A stretch of 64,000 nucleotides of DNA from Pseudomonadota bacterium (GTDB taxonomy: Bacteria; Pseudomonadota; Gammaproteobacteria; Xanthomonadales; SZUA-38): assembly GCA_039195135.1 (NCBI GenBank), contig JBCCVP010000009.1:1629-65628 (forward strand). Direction: 5' to 3'. This document shows, one piece after another, positions 36,386-41,776 of this stretch. Position 1 is the stretch's first letter. Every line of letters starts with the position of its first letter. Under the pieces are notes generated by a model. It had not been told where the DNA came from and searched no databases. It worked only from the letters and a program-made list of their open reading frames with translations. Position numbers and translations under genes: made by a program.

Positions 36386-38296
36386 CTACCGCGGCAGCGC
36401 CAATGCGATCAAAAAGTCACCCGGCATCTCCGTGCCTTCGCGGGAGCCTCCCGCGGCCACCACAACATATTGGCGGCCCTGGTGCCGGTAGCTCATCGGA
36501 GAGGCATGGATGCCGGCGGGCATTGGGATTTTGGCGACGGACGTACCGGTGGAAACATCCATAGCGACCAGTGAGCGGTCCCAGGATGACGCTGCGAATA
36601 CGAGATCGCCGGCGGTGATCAGCGGGCCGCCGGACAAAGTAGAGCCCCACTTCGATGCTTCCGCATGGTCCGCCAGCCAGGGGAAAGGCGGGGCGGCGCT
36701 TTCCCAGAGGCGCTTGCCGCCCTGAAGATCAATGGCGACCCAGGTGCCCCAGGGGCCCCGCAGGCAGGGCAACAAAAGATCGGGGTTAAAAAGGTTGAAC
36801 CGGTTCATGCCGTAGGGTGTGCCTGCCTGCGCGGTAAATTCCACGTCCTGGCTGCCACCCTCTTCATTCGCCTCGCGGCGGGCAAACTCATTCCTCGGCA
36901 CCAGCTGTACCACCGTCGGCAGGCGGTTGAGTGCCAGCACCGCAATCTGACGCTCCCGGTGGATGGCGACGCTGCCCCAGTTGGTACCTCCGGCATTTCC
37001 GGGATAAAGCACCGTACCTTCCAGGCTGGGGGGTGTGAACGGACCTTCATAGCGTCGGCCCTTGAGCAGCTTTTCGCAGTGCCGGCGGTGTTCGGGACTA
37101 TGATCCCAGAGCTTCATCGACTCGGGATGGAGCTTGAGGTCCGCAGACGGCATGGGTTGGCTGGGAGAGGAAACTTCGCCCGGCACCTGAGTCTTCGGCA
37201 CCGGGTGTTCCCGGACGGGGTAAACCGGCTCGCCGGTCGCGCGGTCGAAGCCGAAAAAGTAGCCCATTTTAGTCGCCTGGAGCACGACGGCGCGCTGTTG
37301 GCCGCTGCGTTGTACGTGCGCCAGCGCAGGCTGGGAGGCCAGATCATAGTCCCAGAGATCATGGTGCACGGTCTGAAAGTGCCAGGCCACCTGGCCCGTT
37401 TGCAGGTCCACCGCCACAAGCGAGTTGGCAAAGCGATTGTCACCCAGGCGCTCGCCGCCAAAAAAATCGGGTGCGGGACTGGTCGTGGGCAGGTAAGCAA
37501 GCTGTCGGGTTTCATCGACGGCGGCCATCGACCACACGTTGGCGGCGCCGGTGCGTCGGGCCTGCGTGAGGGTCCAGCGAGATGCCATGGGGTGATCGTC
37601 GGATTTGGGAATCGGGTCGAAGGCCCAGCGGAGCTCGCCGCTGCGGCCATCAAAAGCGCGAATTGTTCCTGGCTCCATTTCGACGCCGCCGTTGTCGCCG
37701 ATCGACGAGCCCACAATGACCAGCCCACCGGCAACCGTTGGCGGCGAGGTCAGTGCGTACTCTCCCCGGCGGAAATGGCGAATACCCGCCGACAGGTCAA
37801 CTTCTCCGTTTTTTCCAAACGCGCGGCAGCGCCGGCCGGTGGTCCCGTCGAGCGCGATGAGTCGCGCATCCAGCGTACCGAGATAGATGGTCACCGCGCA
37901 GGGTTTTCCGGCCGTCCCCCGGCCCGCCGCCACGCCCCGGGCGGTGAACAGCTCCGAGTAGCTGCGCCCGAAATCGACCTCGGGGTCGAAGCGCCAGATC
38001 AGGCGGCCCGTGTCGGGTTCCAGCGCGTACACCCGGTTGAAGCCGGAAACGACGTATAGGCGACCGTCGACATAGATCGGGGTCGCTTTAAACGAGCTTT
38101 TGCGGGAGTGGCTGCTGCCGTCTGCCGCATCGCCGGTACGAAATTGCCAGGCCTGCTGCAGCGAACCGGCGTTGGCTGTGGTGATCTGGGTATGGGGGGA
38201 ATAGCGATCGCCCGCCAGCGTGGCGCCGACGTGCTCCCAGCTGCGGTCCGGCGCCGCAGCTGCCGCCAGCGTCGCGATCATTAGAAGCGCTTTCAT
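36386..38296 (-). CDS. periplasmic PQQ-dependent dehydrogenase (quinoprotein beta-propeller)
   Basis: Signal peptide MKALLMIATLAAAAAP. Repeated W-motif propeller blades. Length of about 636 aa is typical of glucose/alcohol quinoprotein dehydrogenases. Confidence 0.8.
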   Translation of the reverse strand: MKALLMIATLAAAAAPDRSWEHVGATLAGDRYSPHTQITTANAGSLQQAWQFRTGDAADGSSHSRKSSFKATPIYVDGRLYVVSGFNRVYALEPDTGRLIWRFDPEVDFGRSYSELFTARGVAAGRGTAGKPCAVTIYLGTLDARLIALDGTTGRRCRAFGKNGEVDLSAGIRHFRRGEYALTSPPTVAGGLVIVGSSIGDNGGVEMEPGTIRAFDGRSGELRWAFDPIPKSDDHPMASRWTLTQARRTGAANVWSMAAVDETRQLAYLPTTSPAPDFFGGERLGDNRFANSLVAVDLQTGQVAWHFQTVHHDLWDYDLASQPALAHVQRSGQQRAVVLQATKMGYFFGFDRATGEPVYPVREHPVPKTQVPGEVSSPSQPMPSADLKLHPESMKLWDHSPEHRRHCEKLLKGRRYEGPFTPPSLEGTVLYPGNAGGTNWGSVAIHRERQIAVLALNRLPTVVQLVPRNEFARREANEEGGSQDVEFTAQAGTPYGMNRFNLFNPDLLLPCLRGPWGTWVAIDLQGGKRLWESAAPPFPWLADHAEASKWGSTLSGGPLITAGDLVFAASSWDRSLVAMDVSTGTSVAKIPMPAGIHASPMSYRHQGRQYVVVAAGGSREGTEMPGDFLIALALPR

Positions 38297-38448
38297 GGTC
38301 AATCCCCGTGTCGGTCGCCACCACCGTGCGGCCCCATCGCGCGGGAAACAAGCGTTTTGGGTTGAACGGCAGATTTTTGCCACAAGCGGCGGCCGTCGCG
38401 TTCGGGTGTCCGTTTCGGTGGTCGGGTTCAGGTTGATAGGCGCCGAGA

Positions 38449-39015
38449 TCAGTTGATCCGAAATCGACTCTCCTGACTTACCTGCGCCTTAAGGAATGCC
38501 ATCTGGTCGGCCAGAATGCGTCGATTCGACAGAATCAGTCCTTCCGCCACGTTCGGGACATACGGGATCGCGAGCAGCTTCATGCGCAGTTCGCTGAGCA
38601 GTCTGCTGCCTTTACGCTGATTGCAGGCGCGGCACGCTGTCACCACGTTTTCCCAACGATCTCGGCCGCCTCGAGCTACGGGAATCACGTGGTCCCGGGT
38701 GAGCCAGGCCGGCGGCAGCACCTCCCCGCAGTACAGACACATGTGCCGATCCCGCTGAAACAGGCGCGCGTTGGTCAATGCGGGTACATCCCGTTGTTTC
38801 CGCCCGTTCCGGTTCCGGAAACGGGTCGCGACAATCGTATTCAGGTCCAGCCGAGACCGCTTCCCGGTCGCCCGCGAAACGCCGCCGCGCAGGCACAAGG
38901 TCGCTGCGCCGGCCTCCCAGGCGACCCGGTCCAGGCAGTACAGCGTGGCGCACTGCTCCCGGGTCAGCCAGCCCAGCGGCAGGCCGGCAATATCCAGTTT
39001 TAAAATCCACACCAT
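38449..39015 (-). CDS. HNH endonuclease family protein (188 aa)
   Basis: CLYCG...LTRDHVIPVARGG...WENVVTACRACNQRKG. AAGGAG RBS at 39028-39023, 7 nt before the ATG. Confidence 0.85.
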   Translation of the reverse strand: MVWILKLDIAGLPLGWLTREQCATLYCLDRVAWEAGAATLCLRGGVSRATGKRSRLDLNTIVATRFRNRNGRKQRDVPALTNARLFQRDRHMCLYCGEVLPPAWLTRDHVIPVARGGRDRWENVVTACRACNQRKGSRLLSELRMKLLAIPYVPNVAEGLILSNRRILADQMAFLKAQVSQESRFRIN

Positions 39016-39020
39016 CGTTT

Positions 39021-39052
39021 TGCTCCTTGAGAATGTGGATGTGTGAAGGGCC
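39021..39052 (-). repeat. 3' arm of the long-range stem (inverted copy of the boxA/GU-rich leader segment); contains the HNH Shine-Dalgarno
   Basis: The plus strand TGCTCCTTGAGAATGTGGATGTGTGAAGGGCC compares with the reverse complement of 40805-40836. The core 16/16 match is at 39032-39047. About 27 of 32 positions can pair, counting one G-U. Confidence 0.7.
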
Positions 39053-39057
39053 TTGAT

Positions 39058-39135
39058 TGGTAGCCGCCCTCGGACTCGAACCGAGAATCGCCTGTTTCTG
39101 AAACAGGCAGGTATGCCAATTCCCGTCAGACGGCT
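39058..39135 (-). tRNA. tRNA-like gene, anticodon CAG (Leu) on a class I scaffold with a weak D-stem; CCA encoded
   Basis: T-arm CTCGG-TTCGAGT-CCGAG. Acceptor AGCCGTC/GGCGGCT with A73. Anticodon arm CCTGT-TTCAGAA-ACAGG. The variable loop is only 5 nt. The D-loop GAATTGG is Leu-like, but only 2 of 4 D-stem pairs form. Confidence 0.55.
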
Positions 39136-39142
39136 TTGTTTG

Positions 39143-39213
39143 AGACGCTGCCCGGATTCGAACCGGGATTTGAGGATTTGCAGTCCTCCGCCTTACCCTT
39201 CGGCCACAGCGTC
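39143..39213 (-). tRNA. tRNA-Cys (GCA)
   Basis: Clean cloverleaf. Anticodon loop CTGCAAA, U73 discriminator, G13-A22 mismatch as in other tRNA-Cys. CCA is not encoded. Confidence 0.85.
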
Positions 39214-39223
39214 GTTCCAAAAG

Positions 39224-39299
39224 TGGACCGCCTGGAGGGACTCGAACCCCCGGCCTGCCGGTTCGTAACCGGCTGCTCTTCCAGCTGAGCTACAGACGG
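39224..39299 (-). tRNA. tRNA-Arg (ACG)
   Basis: 76 nt canonical cloverleaf. Anticodon loop TTACGAA, A20 present, CCA encoded, unusual C1-G72. Confidence 0.85.
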
Positions 39300-39303
39300 T
39301 AGT

Positions 39304-39378
39304 TGGTTTGAACCATCGGACTCGAACCGATATCTCCAGGGTCACGACCTGACGCTTTACCCTTAAGCTAGGCTCAAC
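39304..39378 (-). tRNA. tRNA-His (GUG)-like with encoded G-1, A73 and C33
   Basis: All four stems form well. The anticodon loop TCGTGAC has C at position 33. G precedes U1. CCA is encoded. Confidence 0.65.
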
Positions 39379-39424
39379 ACCGTGGGAGCCCGAAGAGTTG
39401 TCAAATCCCTGGCTCCGAAAAAAT

Positions 39425-39502
39425 TGGTCTGAAGGGCTGGATTTGAACCAGCGACCCCTCGGTTCCAAACCGAGAACTCTGACCAGACTGAGCTACCTTC
39501 AG
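39425..39502 (-). tRNA. tRNA-Pro (UGG)
   Basis: Canonical cloverleaf with C1-G72 and A73. Anticodon loop TTTGGAA. CCA encoded. Confidence 0.88.
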
Positions 39503-39545
39503 CTTTCGCAGCGTCGGGGCTGTTTGCTCCCGCCGCTGCCCATGT

Positions 39546-39621
39546 TGGTAATCCGGACAGGATTCGAACCTGCAATCTCGAGGTTGAAGGCCTCGCGGCT
39601 TAACCATTCGCCTACCGGATC
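39546..39621 (-). tRNA. tRNA with anticodon UUC (Glu) on a non-Glu-like scaffold, C33
   Basis: Exactly 76 nt in canonical numbering. The anticodon loop CCTTCAA has C33. There is a G1-U72 wobble and A73. The body does not resemble gammaproteobacterial tRNA-Glu. Confidence 0.6.
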
Positions 39622-39628
39622 AAAAAAC

Positions 39629-39703
39629 TGGCGCTGCGGATCGGGCTTGAACCGACACCTGCTGGATCGACAATCCAGTGCTCTAACCTTGAGCTACCGC
39701 AGC
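39629..39703 (-). tRNA. tRNA-Asp (GUC)
   Basis: Canonical cloverleaf. Anticodon loop TTGTCGA, G73, CCA encoded. Confidence 0.88.
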
Positions 39704-40048
39704 GGATAGAACGGCTGAGACTAGGCCGTTGCCAATCACCCTTTGACGGGATTACCCAGCACCTGCCGGCGCCGGTTGCCCGCGTGTCCACGCTCAACCG
39801 GCGGGCGCCGGCTTGAACGTAGGCGATCATGACTGCCTTTTTTGGAGTGTGGCGACTCACTCATCGCGCGTGTCTAGTCAGCAGTTTGCGTACCGTGAGC
39901 CTCGCGGGCTCCAAATAGGGGCTACCCAACCGTGCGGCGCACCGCCAAAGCCTTCTCTGCTTGCGGCATCGAAGGCCACCGGATTGTCTTGCGACTCCGG
40001 CCTTAAGCCACTTTCGACACGAACTGAGGCGCGTCTTTGCGTTTGCTA
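39704..40048 (-). ncRNA. ORF-free, tRNA-punctuated spacer of about 345 nt; candidate structured RNA of unknown class
   Basis: No credible ORF on either strand. Many local GC-rich hairpins, for example AAGGCCGGA...TCCGGTGGCCTT and CGCCGGTTG...CAACCGGCG. It is bounded by a tRNA-like element and tRNA-Asp. Confidence 0.3.
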
Positions 40049-40118
40049 AAGCATGTGCCGGACTCGAACCGGCTATCTCGATCTTGAGTCGAACGCTCTC
40101 CCGTTGAGCTACATTGCA
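40049..40118 (-). pseudogene. degenerate tRNA-like element, anticodon CAA
   Basis: Good D-arm (TAGCTCAACGGGAGAGC), anticodon arm (TTCGA-CTCAAGA-TCGAG) and T-arm (GCCGG-TTCGAGT-CCGGC). The variable loop is only 3 nt, the acceptor stem has 5 bp plus a bulge, and there is no CCA. Confidence 0.45.
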
Positions 40119-40596
40119 TCCCACTGCGACGTGCACGCCTCAGTCGCTTCATAGCCTTTTGGGCCACAAAATACGACACGCCGAATGCCTTTCGCCTGCC
40201 GGCTACTGAGCCGAATGTTCGGGACGCCGGCTCCACACCAGAACCCCGGACCTCTGGGCTGACGCGCTCGCTCGCAAAGCTCGCACTTTTCGCCCTATCC
40301 GTTACCCCTCACGGTTGACGATGTTGGTTTCGCGGGGTGCACCACCACGTGGTCTTTCACTGACCTGCATTCCCGCCCCGCCGTGGCGGTTAGGTGCATC
40401 AATCAGCTACTTCCGCGCATCGCTTGGCCGCTATCTCTGCCGAAGCAAAGACGAGGAGGCCAGACTTGCCTGGACTGACCGAGCTGCTGCTCGGCGAAGC
40501 GCCATGGGGACACTCCTTTCCCGCCGTTACCGACGGTTATCGACGCCAGGCCGCCAAGGCCGATCCCGGCCAGGCCGGTAATCGGACATTCCTAAC
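40119..40596 (-). ncRNA. ORF-free, tRNA-punctuated spacer of about 480 nt; candidate structured RNA of unknown class
   Basis: It lies between tRNA-Asn and the tRNA-like element. Only Arg/Pro-rich shadow ORFs are present. It is GC-rich with many hairpins, for example GAGCCG-N14-CGGCTC. Confidence 0.3.
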
Positions 40597-40672
40597 TGGC
40601 TGGCACGGCAGGACTCGAACCTGCACCACCCCGCTTAACAGGCGGGTGCTCTACCGTTTGAGCTTCGTGCCA
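40597..40672 (-). tRNA. tRNA-Asn (GUU)
   Basis: 76 nt. Anticodon loop CTGTTAA, U1-A72, G73, CCA encoded, unusual A8. Confidence 0.8.
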
Positions 40673-40673
40673 G

Positions 40674-40749
40674 TGGTGGATCGGGTTGGCGTCGAACCAG
40701 CAACGCGCCGGACTTCACCCGGCCGCTCTACCACTTGAGCTACCGATCC
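40674..40749 (-). tRNA. tRNA-Phe (GAA)
   Basis: 76 nt. Anticodon loop GTGAAGT, A73, CCA encoded, one C-A mismatch in the T-stem. Confidence 0.75.
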
Positions 40750-40804
40750 AGAAAACTCGCCGGGACCTCCCGCGTCGGGCACAAAACCACGTCGACCGGG
40801 CACC

Positions 40805-40836
40805 GGCATTTCACACATCCACATTGTTAAAGAGCA
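40805..40836 (-). promoter_or_regulatory. boxA (TGCTCTTTAACAA, 40836-40824) plus a GU-rich boxC-like tract; 5' arm of the long-range stem
   Basis: The minus strand reads TGCTCTTTAACAATGTGGATGTGTGAAATGCC. The first 13 nt are identical to the E. coli rrn boxA consensus. Confidence 0.7.
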
Positions 40837-40839
40837 CAG

Positions 40840-40882
40840 CCAGGGCACAAAAAAGCCCTGGTCAGTTGGTACCTGCCAGGGC
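40840..40882 (-). promoter_or_regulatory. boxB-position hairpin overlapping an alternative terminator-like hairpin
   Basis: The minus strand reads GCCCTGG-N14-CCAGGGC-TTTTTTGT-GCCCTGG. The middle heptamer can pair with either flank. Confidence 0.55.
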
Positions 40883-41112
40883 TTCACTTGCGTTTTGTCC
40901 TGAAAGGTCCGGTTTCTCGAGCCTTCCAGAACAAATGTCTGGAGGCTTTACCGCATCGGCTCACCATGGCGAAGGCAAAATGCATTCGCGCGCCGGCCGC
41001 GGTCATTCACGGGGCGCAGGTCAAGCATCTGCGTCGCACACAAACGGGCAGCAGCGTCTTTGACGCGCGCCGGCGTTTGAGCAGCGGTACTGATTGAGTT
41101 AGAAAATTGCAT
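40883..41112 (-). other. transcribed leader (about 230 nt) between the predicted TSS and the boxB/boxA elements
   Basis: Position is inferred from the promoter at 41147-41120. There is no convincing ORF. Confidence 0.4.
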
Positions 41113-41119
41113 GCCGGGG

Positions 41120-41147
41120 AGTATACGCCGGAAGAACGCCGTGTCAA
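41120..41147 (-). promoter_or_regulatory. near-consensus sigma70 stable-RNA-type promoter
   Basis: TTGACA (41147-41142), a 16 bp spacer, TATACT (41125-41120), then the GC-rich discriminator CCCCGGC. Confidence 0.7.
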
Positions 41148-41150
41148 CAC

Positions 41151-41190
41151 GTGAAATGAATTAGTATTCATTCGAAATGAATTTATTTGA
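41151..41190 (-). promoter_or_regulatory. AT-rich UP-element-like tract containing AATGAAT / ATTCATT / AATGAAT heptamers
   Basis: About 75 percent AT in a GC-rich genome, immediately upstream of the -35. GAAATGAAT occurs at 41153-41161 and 41174-41182, with the inverted ATTCATT at 41166-41172. Confidence 0.5.
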
Positions 41191-41230
41191 GGCAAATGCG
41201 ACCGCAGCGCCCGGACTCCGGTTTGCTACC

Positions 41231-41776
41231 TCAGCTGTCCGCCGCAGGCAAAAGCGCGGCGGTAGGTTTTGTTGGCGTGAGGGTGACAGCGACGCGTTGC
41301 TGGCTCGGGCTGCGGCGGGCAGAAAACTCCAGCGCCTGTTCATCCGGCGCTGCGCCAAAGAGGTTAAACGAGAGCGTCATCTCGCCCTCGGGGTTGTTGA
41401 GGGCATACCGGCCCATCGCCACAAGCTGAGAGCTGGGTGCGCTGGACGTGTCATGGGCATGGGCCGGTGAAAGCAGCAGGCCTTCAAGTGCGCAGGCACC
41501 TCCCGCATCGGACAGCACCACTCGCTCGATGACGGCCGCGGCGATAGCGTGCTGATGGCGATGGAATTCTTCGGTGGAGAGGCGACCGTCCTGATCATCG
41601 TCCACGCCGGCAAACGCGCTAACGGGGATGGAGACGACCAGATAGGCCCCGTCGTCGACCACGTTCAGCGTGCCCCGCTGGGCGGCCATGGGATGAGCCG
41701 CTGCCCCGGTGCACACCAGCGACAGAAGTAGACCCGCAACCGGCGAGGCCAGGGTTGAAGTTCTGAACGACCGCAT
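41231..41776 (-). CDS. secreted His-rich protein with a single EF-hand-like Ca-binding loop
   Basis: The signal peptide ends AAA|HPM, which predicts an N-terminal His. The loop DDDQDGRLSTEEF fits the EF-hand consensus. HRHQH and HAHD clusters are present. The start overlaps the upstream stop (TGATG). Confidence 0.6.
   Translation of the reverse strand: MRSFRTSTLASPVAGLLLSLVCTGAAAHPMAAQRGTLNVVDDGAYLVVSIPVSAFAGVDDDQDGRLSTEEFHRHQHAIAAAVIERVVLSDAGGACALEGLLLSPAHAHDTSSAPSSQLVAMGRYALNNPEGEMTLSFNLFGAAPDEQALEFSARRSPSQQRVAVTLTPTKPTAALLPAADS

Follow-up and report, generated by a model that had tools for sequence, protein, structure and literature searches.

The DNA considered here (hereafter, the window) is a stretch of 64,000 nucleotides (nt) from a Pseudomonadota metagenome-assembled genome (MAG). 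Nine tRNA genes and one embedded tRNA-like element lie on one strand within 1.7 kilobases (kb), together with a ~900-nt RNA, and are followed by a gene for an HNH protein of 188 amino acids (aa). All features of this island are on the minus strand (Table 1). On the evidence of its sequence, we assign the locus to the long tRNA arrays (L-arrays), here in a proteobacterium and with GOLLD RNA. Our analysis follows up an earlier reading of the same DNA (hereafter, the original prediction), in which the HNH gene was taken to be the only open reading frame (ORF) of a stable-RNA operon, with its Shine-Dalgarno (SD) sequence inside a long-range stem. As that reading had it, the HNH gene starts shortly after the last tRNA and on the same strand: ARAGORN ends this tRNA at 39058, leaving a gap of 42 nt.

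The ~900-nt spacer within the array is GOLLD, with a variable 5′ half (~40596–40187) and a conserved 3′ domain (40186–39712). The full Rfam model RF02032 (positions 1–416) matches the window with 133.7 bits (E-value 1.9e-36), against a gathering score of 150. Among surveyed relatives, the homologous copy of L016 exceeds the gathering score with 153.5 bits and that of L003 reaches 147 bits, and nhmmer comparisons between GOLLD copies give E-values of ~1e-144. With these two tools GOLLD was found in the window (WIN in the locus labels, where L-numbers denote surveyed relatives), in L003, L016, L243, L244, L245 and L251, and in the viral locus L092. At Rfam gathering thresholds only tRNAs were reported in the window, and GOLLD surfaced with E-value thresholds; because scores in this lineage fall around or just below the gathering threshold, routine annotation misses its GOLLD. 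The original prediction likewise had not recognized the ~900-nt RNA as GOLLD. A tRNA-like element (40117–40050; 37.3 bits) is embedded in the GOLLD match, and tRNA genes stand on both sides of GOLLD.

The tRNA-Leu(cag) at the 3′ end of the array is 78 nt long, has a short variable region, and scores 33 bits with the Rfam tRNA model. The array tRNA-Leu genes in this position (window, L002, L004, L013, L243–L248) measure 75–79 nt, again with a short variable region, and have the anticodon at position 36–37, unlike normal class II bacterial tRNA-Leu.

Table 1. Features of the island, in order of transcription.
Feature	Position	Strand	Evidence
Promoter	41147–41120	minus	sigma-70 consensus scan
Leader ORF, 54 aa	41112–40948	minus	ORF list and conservation
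Attenuator-like leader	40947–40849	minus	RNAalifold consensus
boxA	40836–40824	minus	exact motif match
Bracket helix, 5′ arm	40836–40810	minus	inverted repeat
tRNA-Phe(gaa)	40749–40674	minus	ARAGORN; Rfam tRNA (Phe/Asn scores 45 and 67.6 bits)
tRNA-Asn(gtt)	40672–40597	minus	ARAGORN; Rfam tRNA (Phe/Asn scores 45 and 67.6 bits)
GOLLD RNA	40596–39704	minus	Rfam RF02032
Seven tRNAs: Asp, Glu, Pro, His, Arg, Cys, Leu(cag)	39703–39058	minus	ARAGORN, Rfam
Bracket helix, 3′ arm, TTCACACATCCACATTCTCAAGGAGCA	39047–39021	minus	inverted repeat
HNH gene, 188 aa	39015–38449	minus	ORF; Pfam HNH_5, HNH

The HNH family and its linkage to tRNA arrays

The HNH protein passes the Pfam cut-offs for HNH_5 (5.2e-17) and HNH (2.9e-13) and belongs to a family of 3457 homologues, each of ~189 aa. 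Among 30 diverse members, mean column identity over the full length is 69%; the CxxC...CxxC, DH, and N residues are invariant, and further invariant residues occur N- and C-terminal to the HNH core. The core resembles that of Gme HNH nickase and the HNH domains of Cas9 and IscB: a profile search matched Gme HNH nickase (4h9d, 9e-15), which was also the top Foldseek match in the PDB, with the match confined to the core. PHROGs and NCBIfam returned generic HNH, Cas9, or IscB core matches and no specific family. For the conserved, beta-rich N-terminal domain (residues 1–65), Pfam, PDB sequences, and Foldseek gave no match. The AlphaFold2 model is mediocre, with a predicted local distance difference test (pLDDT) score of 67, and ~77–80 in the N-terminal domain. 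The HNH protein of a Mycolicibacterium alvei array matches over residues 18–154, and that of plasmid pM7012 of Burkholderia sp. M701 (L254), encoded after 37 tRNAs, matches over the full length at 46% identity. Full-length homologues in the cultured jumbo phages RsoM2USA and SCTP-2 are annotated as hypothetical proteins. In IMG/VR, 389 viral contigs, many of jumbo-phage size (150–380 kb), encode full-length homologues.

To place the window among its relatives, we surveyed 80 HNH loci from each of three sets (reference genomes, viral contigs, and metagenomes) and added the contigs of the eight top protein matches along with annotated phage and plasmid records; an array locus was defined by at least three same-strand tRNA genes. 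Same-strand arrays accompany the HNH gene in 6/80 loci of the genome set, 8/80 of the metagenome set, 48 of the best 80 of the viral set, and 9/11 of the additional set. Orientation is uniform: all 950 tRNA genes of the array loci share the strand of the HNH gene, with none opposite, and the gap from the last tRNA to the HNH gene is typically 14–113 nt. Arrays adjoin all eight of the top protein matches looked up, as well as 19 of the 23 members of the window's own clade; of the other four, two have no detected array (one of them is a contig of 2.8 kb) and two are contigs that do not reach far enough upstream to judge. Among the viral clades, several have arrays in nearly all members. The original prediction proposed a survey of homologues for adjacent tRNA genes, to be answered in the negative if the two were never linked; the linkage is strong, so that refutation fails.

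Arrays are absent from three large chromosomal clades (116 loci; Solimonas, Lysobacter, Burkholderiales), in which the HNH gene has housekeeping neighbors. Such array-free, full-length HNH clades occur in Gamma- and Betaproteobacteria (Solimonas, Lysobacter enzymogenes, and Tepidimonas; L005–L080, e.g., L006 2581–3378 and L080), and in ~20 array-free loci the HNH gene is divergent from a MazG gene. The neighbors in array-free loci (MazG, aminotransferase, ClpB, polyprenyl synthase) did not point to a function. In the 48 array-linked viral loci (among L081–L160, the best 80), the HNH gene lies within the array, often with tRNAs on both sides.

Two further genes recur in the related loci: RtcB adjoins HNH in 17 of them, and a Band-7 protein is present in 18. 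The whole 64-kb window contains no RtcB, Band-7/SPFH protein, or helix-turn-helix (HTH) regulator, and its array is short by comparison with the 12–37 tRNAs of relatives, from which we conclude that the window holds a reduced copy of the island.

Leader region, boxA, and a helix bracketing the array

Upstream of the array, an exact boxA, TGCTCTTTAACAA, occurs once in the 64 kb and in none of 100 shuffled sequences. It runs without a gap into the 5′ arm of a leader–trailer helix (hereafter, the bracket helix), which corresponds to the top inverted repeat of the region, with arms at 39012–39052 and 40805–40845, 1752 nt apart. The 27-nt core of the helix, TGCTCTTTAACAATGTGGATGTGTGAA against TTCACACATCCACATTCTCAAGGAGCA, has two mismatches and one G-U pair, and RNAduplex gives the window arms −45.9 kcal/mol. 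Because no rRNA was found anywhere in the window (Rfam), this helix would work like that of rRNA (rrn) operons without being one.

The arrangement is conserved. In 16 loci (WIN, L003, L013, L016, L102, L161, L237–L239, L243–L246, L248, L250, L254), a boxA or boxA-like sequence and a bracket helix surround the entire cargo, with the 3′ strand directly after the last tRNA, even though the cargo varies from 2 to 37 tRNAs, with or without GOLLD, Band-7, and insertion sequence (IS) elements, over 0.4–5.2 kb. The arms have lineage-specific sequences (TGTGGATGTGTGAA, TTTGGATGATTGAAG, ATCGGAAAGTGTGTTTT, TCTGGAGAGGTA) and nonetheless remain complementary. Across 15 loci, pairing holds in 90.8% of cells, and both sides have changed in 12 of 19 helix pairs, counts that lean on a hand-made, register-anchored alignment, since MAFFT placed the concatenated arms out of register. 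None of 500 shuffles reached the covariation score, and sliding one strand lowers pairing to 26–45%. The window itself has a matched 1-nt deletion in both arms. Sense-strand boxA-like sites occur in 22 of 72 array loci, compared with 1 of 180 array-free loci.

Elements of three IS types (DDE_Tnp_1_4, IS481-type rve, and DDE_Tnp_1) lie in or beside arrays (L013 2459–3772; L245 2635–3822; L250 6641–8146), where the bracket arms are nonetheless kept. Among the viral loci, an HNH-adjacent bracket helix was found in L102 only. L254 corresponds to positions 441131–455688 of pM7012, a conjugative plasmid of a cultured strain, and has 37 tRNAs, the boxA-like sequence ACTCTTTAACAA, and a 14-bp bracket helix; it offers a practical experimental system.

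A single sigma-70-like promoter was found between 38000 and 41600, using a consensus scan that is crude and blind to non-sigma-70 promoters. It matches 11 of 12 consensus positions (−35 TTGACA, 41147–41142; 16-nt spacer; −10 TATACT, 41125–41120). Upstream of the −35 lie an operator-like palindrome, TTCATTTCGAATGAA (41181–41167), and an extra half-site, TTCATTTCAC (41160–41151). The arrangement TTGACA-N16/17-TATACT with upstream GTTCAC-type repeats is kept in 11 related loci, and at least nine relatives have an XRE-like HTH gene just upstream of the promoter.

The HNH gene is not the only ORF of the operon, as had been supposed: a conserved ORF of 54 codons (MQFSN...RHGEPMR), missed in the original prediction, opens the transcript. 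Because its ATG is only 7 nt past the −10 hexamer, the ORF is probably leaderless, or nearly so. An equivalent ORF of 48–59 aa, with its ATG 7–10 nt past the −10, is present in all 11 relatives with a locatable promoter. Over 11 loci, the leader ORFs have a common C-terminal GEPMT-like motif (GEPMR in the window) and stop at a fixed alignment position; their frame contains no stops, compared with 25 and 33 in the other two frames.

Between the leader ORF and boxA lies a region with weak resemblance to the Rfam His_leader (E-value 0.69). Immediately 3′ of the stop codon is the segment r1, AGCCTCCAGA (40947–40938). It is complementary to r2, TCTGGAAGGCT (40930–40920), which also pairs with r3, GACCTTTCAGGA (40909–40898; also given as ACCTTTCAGG). 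A further partial complementarity joins r3 to the 5′ half of a G+C-rich, terminator-like hairpin (40883–40855) that is followed by a U-run (40854–40849) and precedes boxA. The RNAalifold consensus of 11 loci recovers both the r2:r3 hairpin and the terminator-like hairpin. The alternative pairing, r1:r2 with r3 against the terminator 5′ half, is complementary in 76.7% of cells and has covariation no better than that of shuffles; with so little variation among the sequences, covariation cannot lend support to the attenuator pairings.

We tentatively suggest, from these complementarities, that the leader may work as a translation-sensing attenuator. A ribosome at the stop codon of the leader ORF would cover r1 and favor r2:r3 with the terminator, and failed or stalled translation would allow r1:r2 and r3:anti-terminator to form, giving read-through. 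Such stalling-dependent read-through would lead to induction under translational stress, which is how the L-array of Anabaena behaves.

Expression of the HNH gene and rival explanations

Co-transcription of the HNH gene with the RNA array is very probable. We also consider it reasonably probable that the gene forms the 3′ cistron of an L-array island that has spread horizontally, in which boxA and the bracket helix package the RNA cargo. Transcription would start at the promoter of Table 1 and pass the leader ORF and the attenuator-like hairpins. By analogy with rrn operons, boxA would then load a NusB/NusE antitermination complex, allowing RNA polymerase to cross ~1.8 kb of untranslated structured RNA and continue into the HNH gene. 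The sequence beginning with boxA and that following the last tRNA would form the leader–trailer helix, a likely substrate for RNase III, and cutting the helix would free the HNH mRNA from the array RNA. The window has so short a spacer that the anti-boxA strand would at the same time serve as the SD sequence of the HNH gene. Translation would be low with an intact helix and could proceed co-transcriptionally or after cleavage or melting; with the Nus complex on RNA polymerase, NusB and NusE would hold boxA, and the SD could stay free for co-transcriptional initiation.

The SD overlap was at the center of the original prediction, which had the AAGGAG in the 3′ arm pair with the CUCUUU of boxA, a pairing that the inverted repeat and the partition function corroborate. 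The motif (39028–39023) lies 7 nt before the HNH ATG, within the 3′ arm, the 3′ end of which is the anti-boxA. A two-strand partition function puts the pairing probability of the SD bases at 0.83–1.0 with the 5′ arm present, compared with 0–0.4 when the 3′ segment folds alone. The window anti-boxA reads AAGGAGC, in which the G of AAGGAG makes for a better SD but leaves the helix with a U-G wobble. By this model, gating of HNH translation by the helix is thermodynamically credible in the window, and a real effect seems possible, although we would not call it probable. A local hairpin pairing the 3′ arm with the opening codons of HNH was rejected, being no better than shuffles (z 0.23).

The other helix loci differ in this respect. 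The 3′ arm ends 5 nt from the start codon in the window, compared with 15 to ~95 nt in the 15 others, each of which has a separate SD 3′ of the core helix. RNAduplex can stretch the pairing over the SD in L003 and a handful of other loci, with weak, wobble-rich pairs only. SD occlusion is a local variant and not the conserved design of the island. The original claim that translation is occluded until the stem is cleaved or melted thus stands for the window insofar as the SD is thermodynamically sequestered there, and does not carry over to the 15 other loci.

Several points weigh against the reading that we favor. The occluded SD is seen in one (possibly two, with L003) of the 16 loci, so it is not under obvious conserved selection. 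In addition, the boxA complement (UUGUUAAAGAGC) is intrinsically SD-like, and the overlap of SD and helix may for this reason be a by-product of a shortened spacer. The HNH protein of Anabaena, all8564, is alignable with residues 70–154 only, and its gene precedes the array and has a separate, TrcR-regulated promoter (PMC8421152, PMC10272220), so that the operon position of HNH is not universal. A terminator-like hairpin and U-run stand between the promoter and boxA, and read-through into the array may therefore be conditional or low. Finally, co-transcription, Nus loading, RNase III cleavage, and an effect on translation are all steps that we infer.

The strongest alternative, though on balance we think it rather unlikely, is that the HNH protein is a selfish or passenger endonuclease of the homing type, settled at the edge of the array and expressed by read-through, with an accidental pairing of SD and boxA. 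It would explain why occlusion is absent from 15 of the 16 helix loci, and it agrees with the published view that array-linked HNH proteins are homing endonucleases that spread arrays (PMC8421152, PMC6582537). The arrays are clearly mobile, too, given that the genes flanking them differ from locus to locus, that they occur on plasmids and in phages, and that IS elements have inserted into them. The array-linked clades are sporadic in distribution, as a homing endonuclease might be. The 69% mean column identity and the invariant residues outside the core, however, are unusual for a selfish endonuclease, and large array-free chromosomal clades persist in housekeeping contexts; together they argue that HNH is not a purely selfish, decaying homing endonuclease. 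The G of AAGGAG that betters the SD at the expense of the helix and the strong occlusion predicted by the cofold model likewise speak against accidental pairing.

A second alternative is that the 27-nt repeats act as DNA, either as the terminal repeats of a mobile tRNA cassette or as sites for its recombination, and possibly as the target of HNH. The horizontal movement of the arrays, the retention of the repeats around cargo that is highly variable between loci, and the endonuclease gene adjoining a repeat would all fit. Yet the 5′ repeat opens with a sense-strand consensus boxA of a kind nearly confined to array loci, and the layout copies the rrn design of boxA with leader and trailer. Moreover, eight cells of the helix alignment are G-U, compared with three that are A-C, which fits pairing on the sense transcript, and the conserved unit of promoter, leader ORF, HNH, and RtcB reaches beyond both repeats. 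We judge this alternative highly improbable. Equally improbable is an independent HNH gene with its own promoter, whose position after the array says nothing about shared expression: the Anabaena precedent and the crudeness of the consensus scan favor it, but HNH is on the array strand in all ~70 array loci, 27 of the 42 nt between tRNA and ATG belong to the helix arm, and the scan of 38000–41600 found no terminator-like site on the minus strand, hence none ahead of HNH, and, as far as sigma-70-like sites go, no promoter in the gap (39016–39057), in line with the original prediction on both counts.

Extending the 3′-cistron reading beyond the window, proteobacterial GOLLD/tRNA L-arrays may be made as rRNA-like precursors, with a repressor-controlled promoter, a leaderless leader ORF and an attenuator that sense translation, boxA antitermination, release by the helix, and HNH and RtcB expressed from a processed 3′ fragment; in the window, the SD would be tied to helix processing. 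We give this broader scheme limited credence. What GOLLD does has been a question since 2009, and one that its 14-mer nanocage structure (2025) sharpens. The RNA is now placed in a defined, conserved transcription unit with promoter and operator, leader ORF, boxA, and a candidate processing helix, next to RtcB, Band-7, and HNH, the partners that in Anabaena respond to translational stress together with the L-array. Concrete experimental handles follow: the promoter, the helix, host factors (Nus, RNase III, Rho), and a cultured replicon. The SD-occlusion idea matters less, as a local variant with known mechanistic precedents; if true, the overlap of anti-boxA and SD in the window would tie nuclease synthesis directly to helix processing.

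Comparison with known systems

Long, horizontally transferred tRNA arrays with a conserved neighboring HNH “homing endonuclease” have been described as L-arrays (Santamaria-Gomez et al., 2021; PMC8421152). A nuclease gene in or beside a tRNA array is thus already on record, although the original prediction had not recognized it as such: besides cyanobacterial L-arrays, it is published for Mycobacterium clusters and for SegB in the tRNA cluster of phage T4, the latter as cited in PMC8421152. In Anabaena sp. PCC 7120, translational stress induces all8564 together with the trn operon and rtcB (PMC8421152), and all of these, along with a slipin/Band-7 gene, are members of the TrcR regulon (PMC10272220). 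The window resembles this L-array in its co-oriented, supernumerary tRNA array of foreign origin, its conserved adjoining HNH gene, and its apparently repressor-controlled promoter; RtcB and slipin/Band-7 partners are common to both systems, in the same regulon in Anabaena and adjacent in the surveyed relatives. Unlike Anabaena, the window has its HNH gene downstream of the array, inside the transcription unit, and carries GOLLD; RtcB, Band-7, and the HTH regulator are missing from this copy. The L-array papers do not mention a boxA, a bracket helix, or a leader ORF with attenuator-like hairpins.

GOLLD occurs near tRNA islands and forms a 14-mer cage (PMC12286853), and tRNA clusters of Mycobacterium aubagnense, M. 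abscessus, and M. conceptionense carry both GOLLD and HNH (PMC6582537). The window shares with these clusters a GOLLD 3′ domain with an embedded (pseudo)tRNA, flanking tRNAs, and an HNH gene. It differs from known GOLLD clusters in its proteobacterial host (a MAG) and in its Rfam score below gathering. In a literature search that was incomplete, and so is not proof of novelty, we found no report of rrn-like packaging or of RtcB/Band-7 partners for GOLLD, and none linking tRNA arrays or GOLLD with boxA. The rRNA-style packaging by boxA and leader–trailer helix, and the conserved, probably leaderless leader ORF, appear to be new.

In the phage lambda N leader and the T7 early mRNAs, RNase III-sensitive structures that mask the SD control translation. 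The window is similar in that its SD lies in a long duplex, a plausible RNase III substrate, and could be exposed by cleavage or melting. It is dissimilar in that the duplex spans 1.75 kb of stable-RNA genes, boxA acts as the anti-SD, and the occlusion is not conserved.

A primary study of clustered regularly interspaced short palindromic repeat (CRISPR) arrays reportedly found boxA-dependent antitermination of these long non-coding arrays. Use of boxA ahead of CRISPR arrays is also mentioned in PMC7862264. There, as here, boxA precedes a long untranslated array, presumably countering Rho termination; the cargo is different, and CRISPR arrays are without a bracket helix.

The closest parallel in layout is the rrn operon, in which boxA is followed by a leader–trailer helix with an RNase III site, and the antitermination complex is believed to keep hold of the leader strand until the trailer appears (PMC10250234). 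As in an rrn leader, a consensus boxA leads straight into the 5′ strand of a helix of more than 17 bp, whose 3′ strand lies just after the stable-RNA cargo. The differences are that the cargo consists of tRNAs and GOLLD, that boxA itself is drawn into the helix, that an intrinsic-terminator-like hairpin precedes boxA, and that a protein gene follows directly. The island would thereby extend boxA and leader–trailer packaging from rRNA to mobile stable-RNA cargo.

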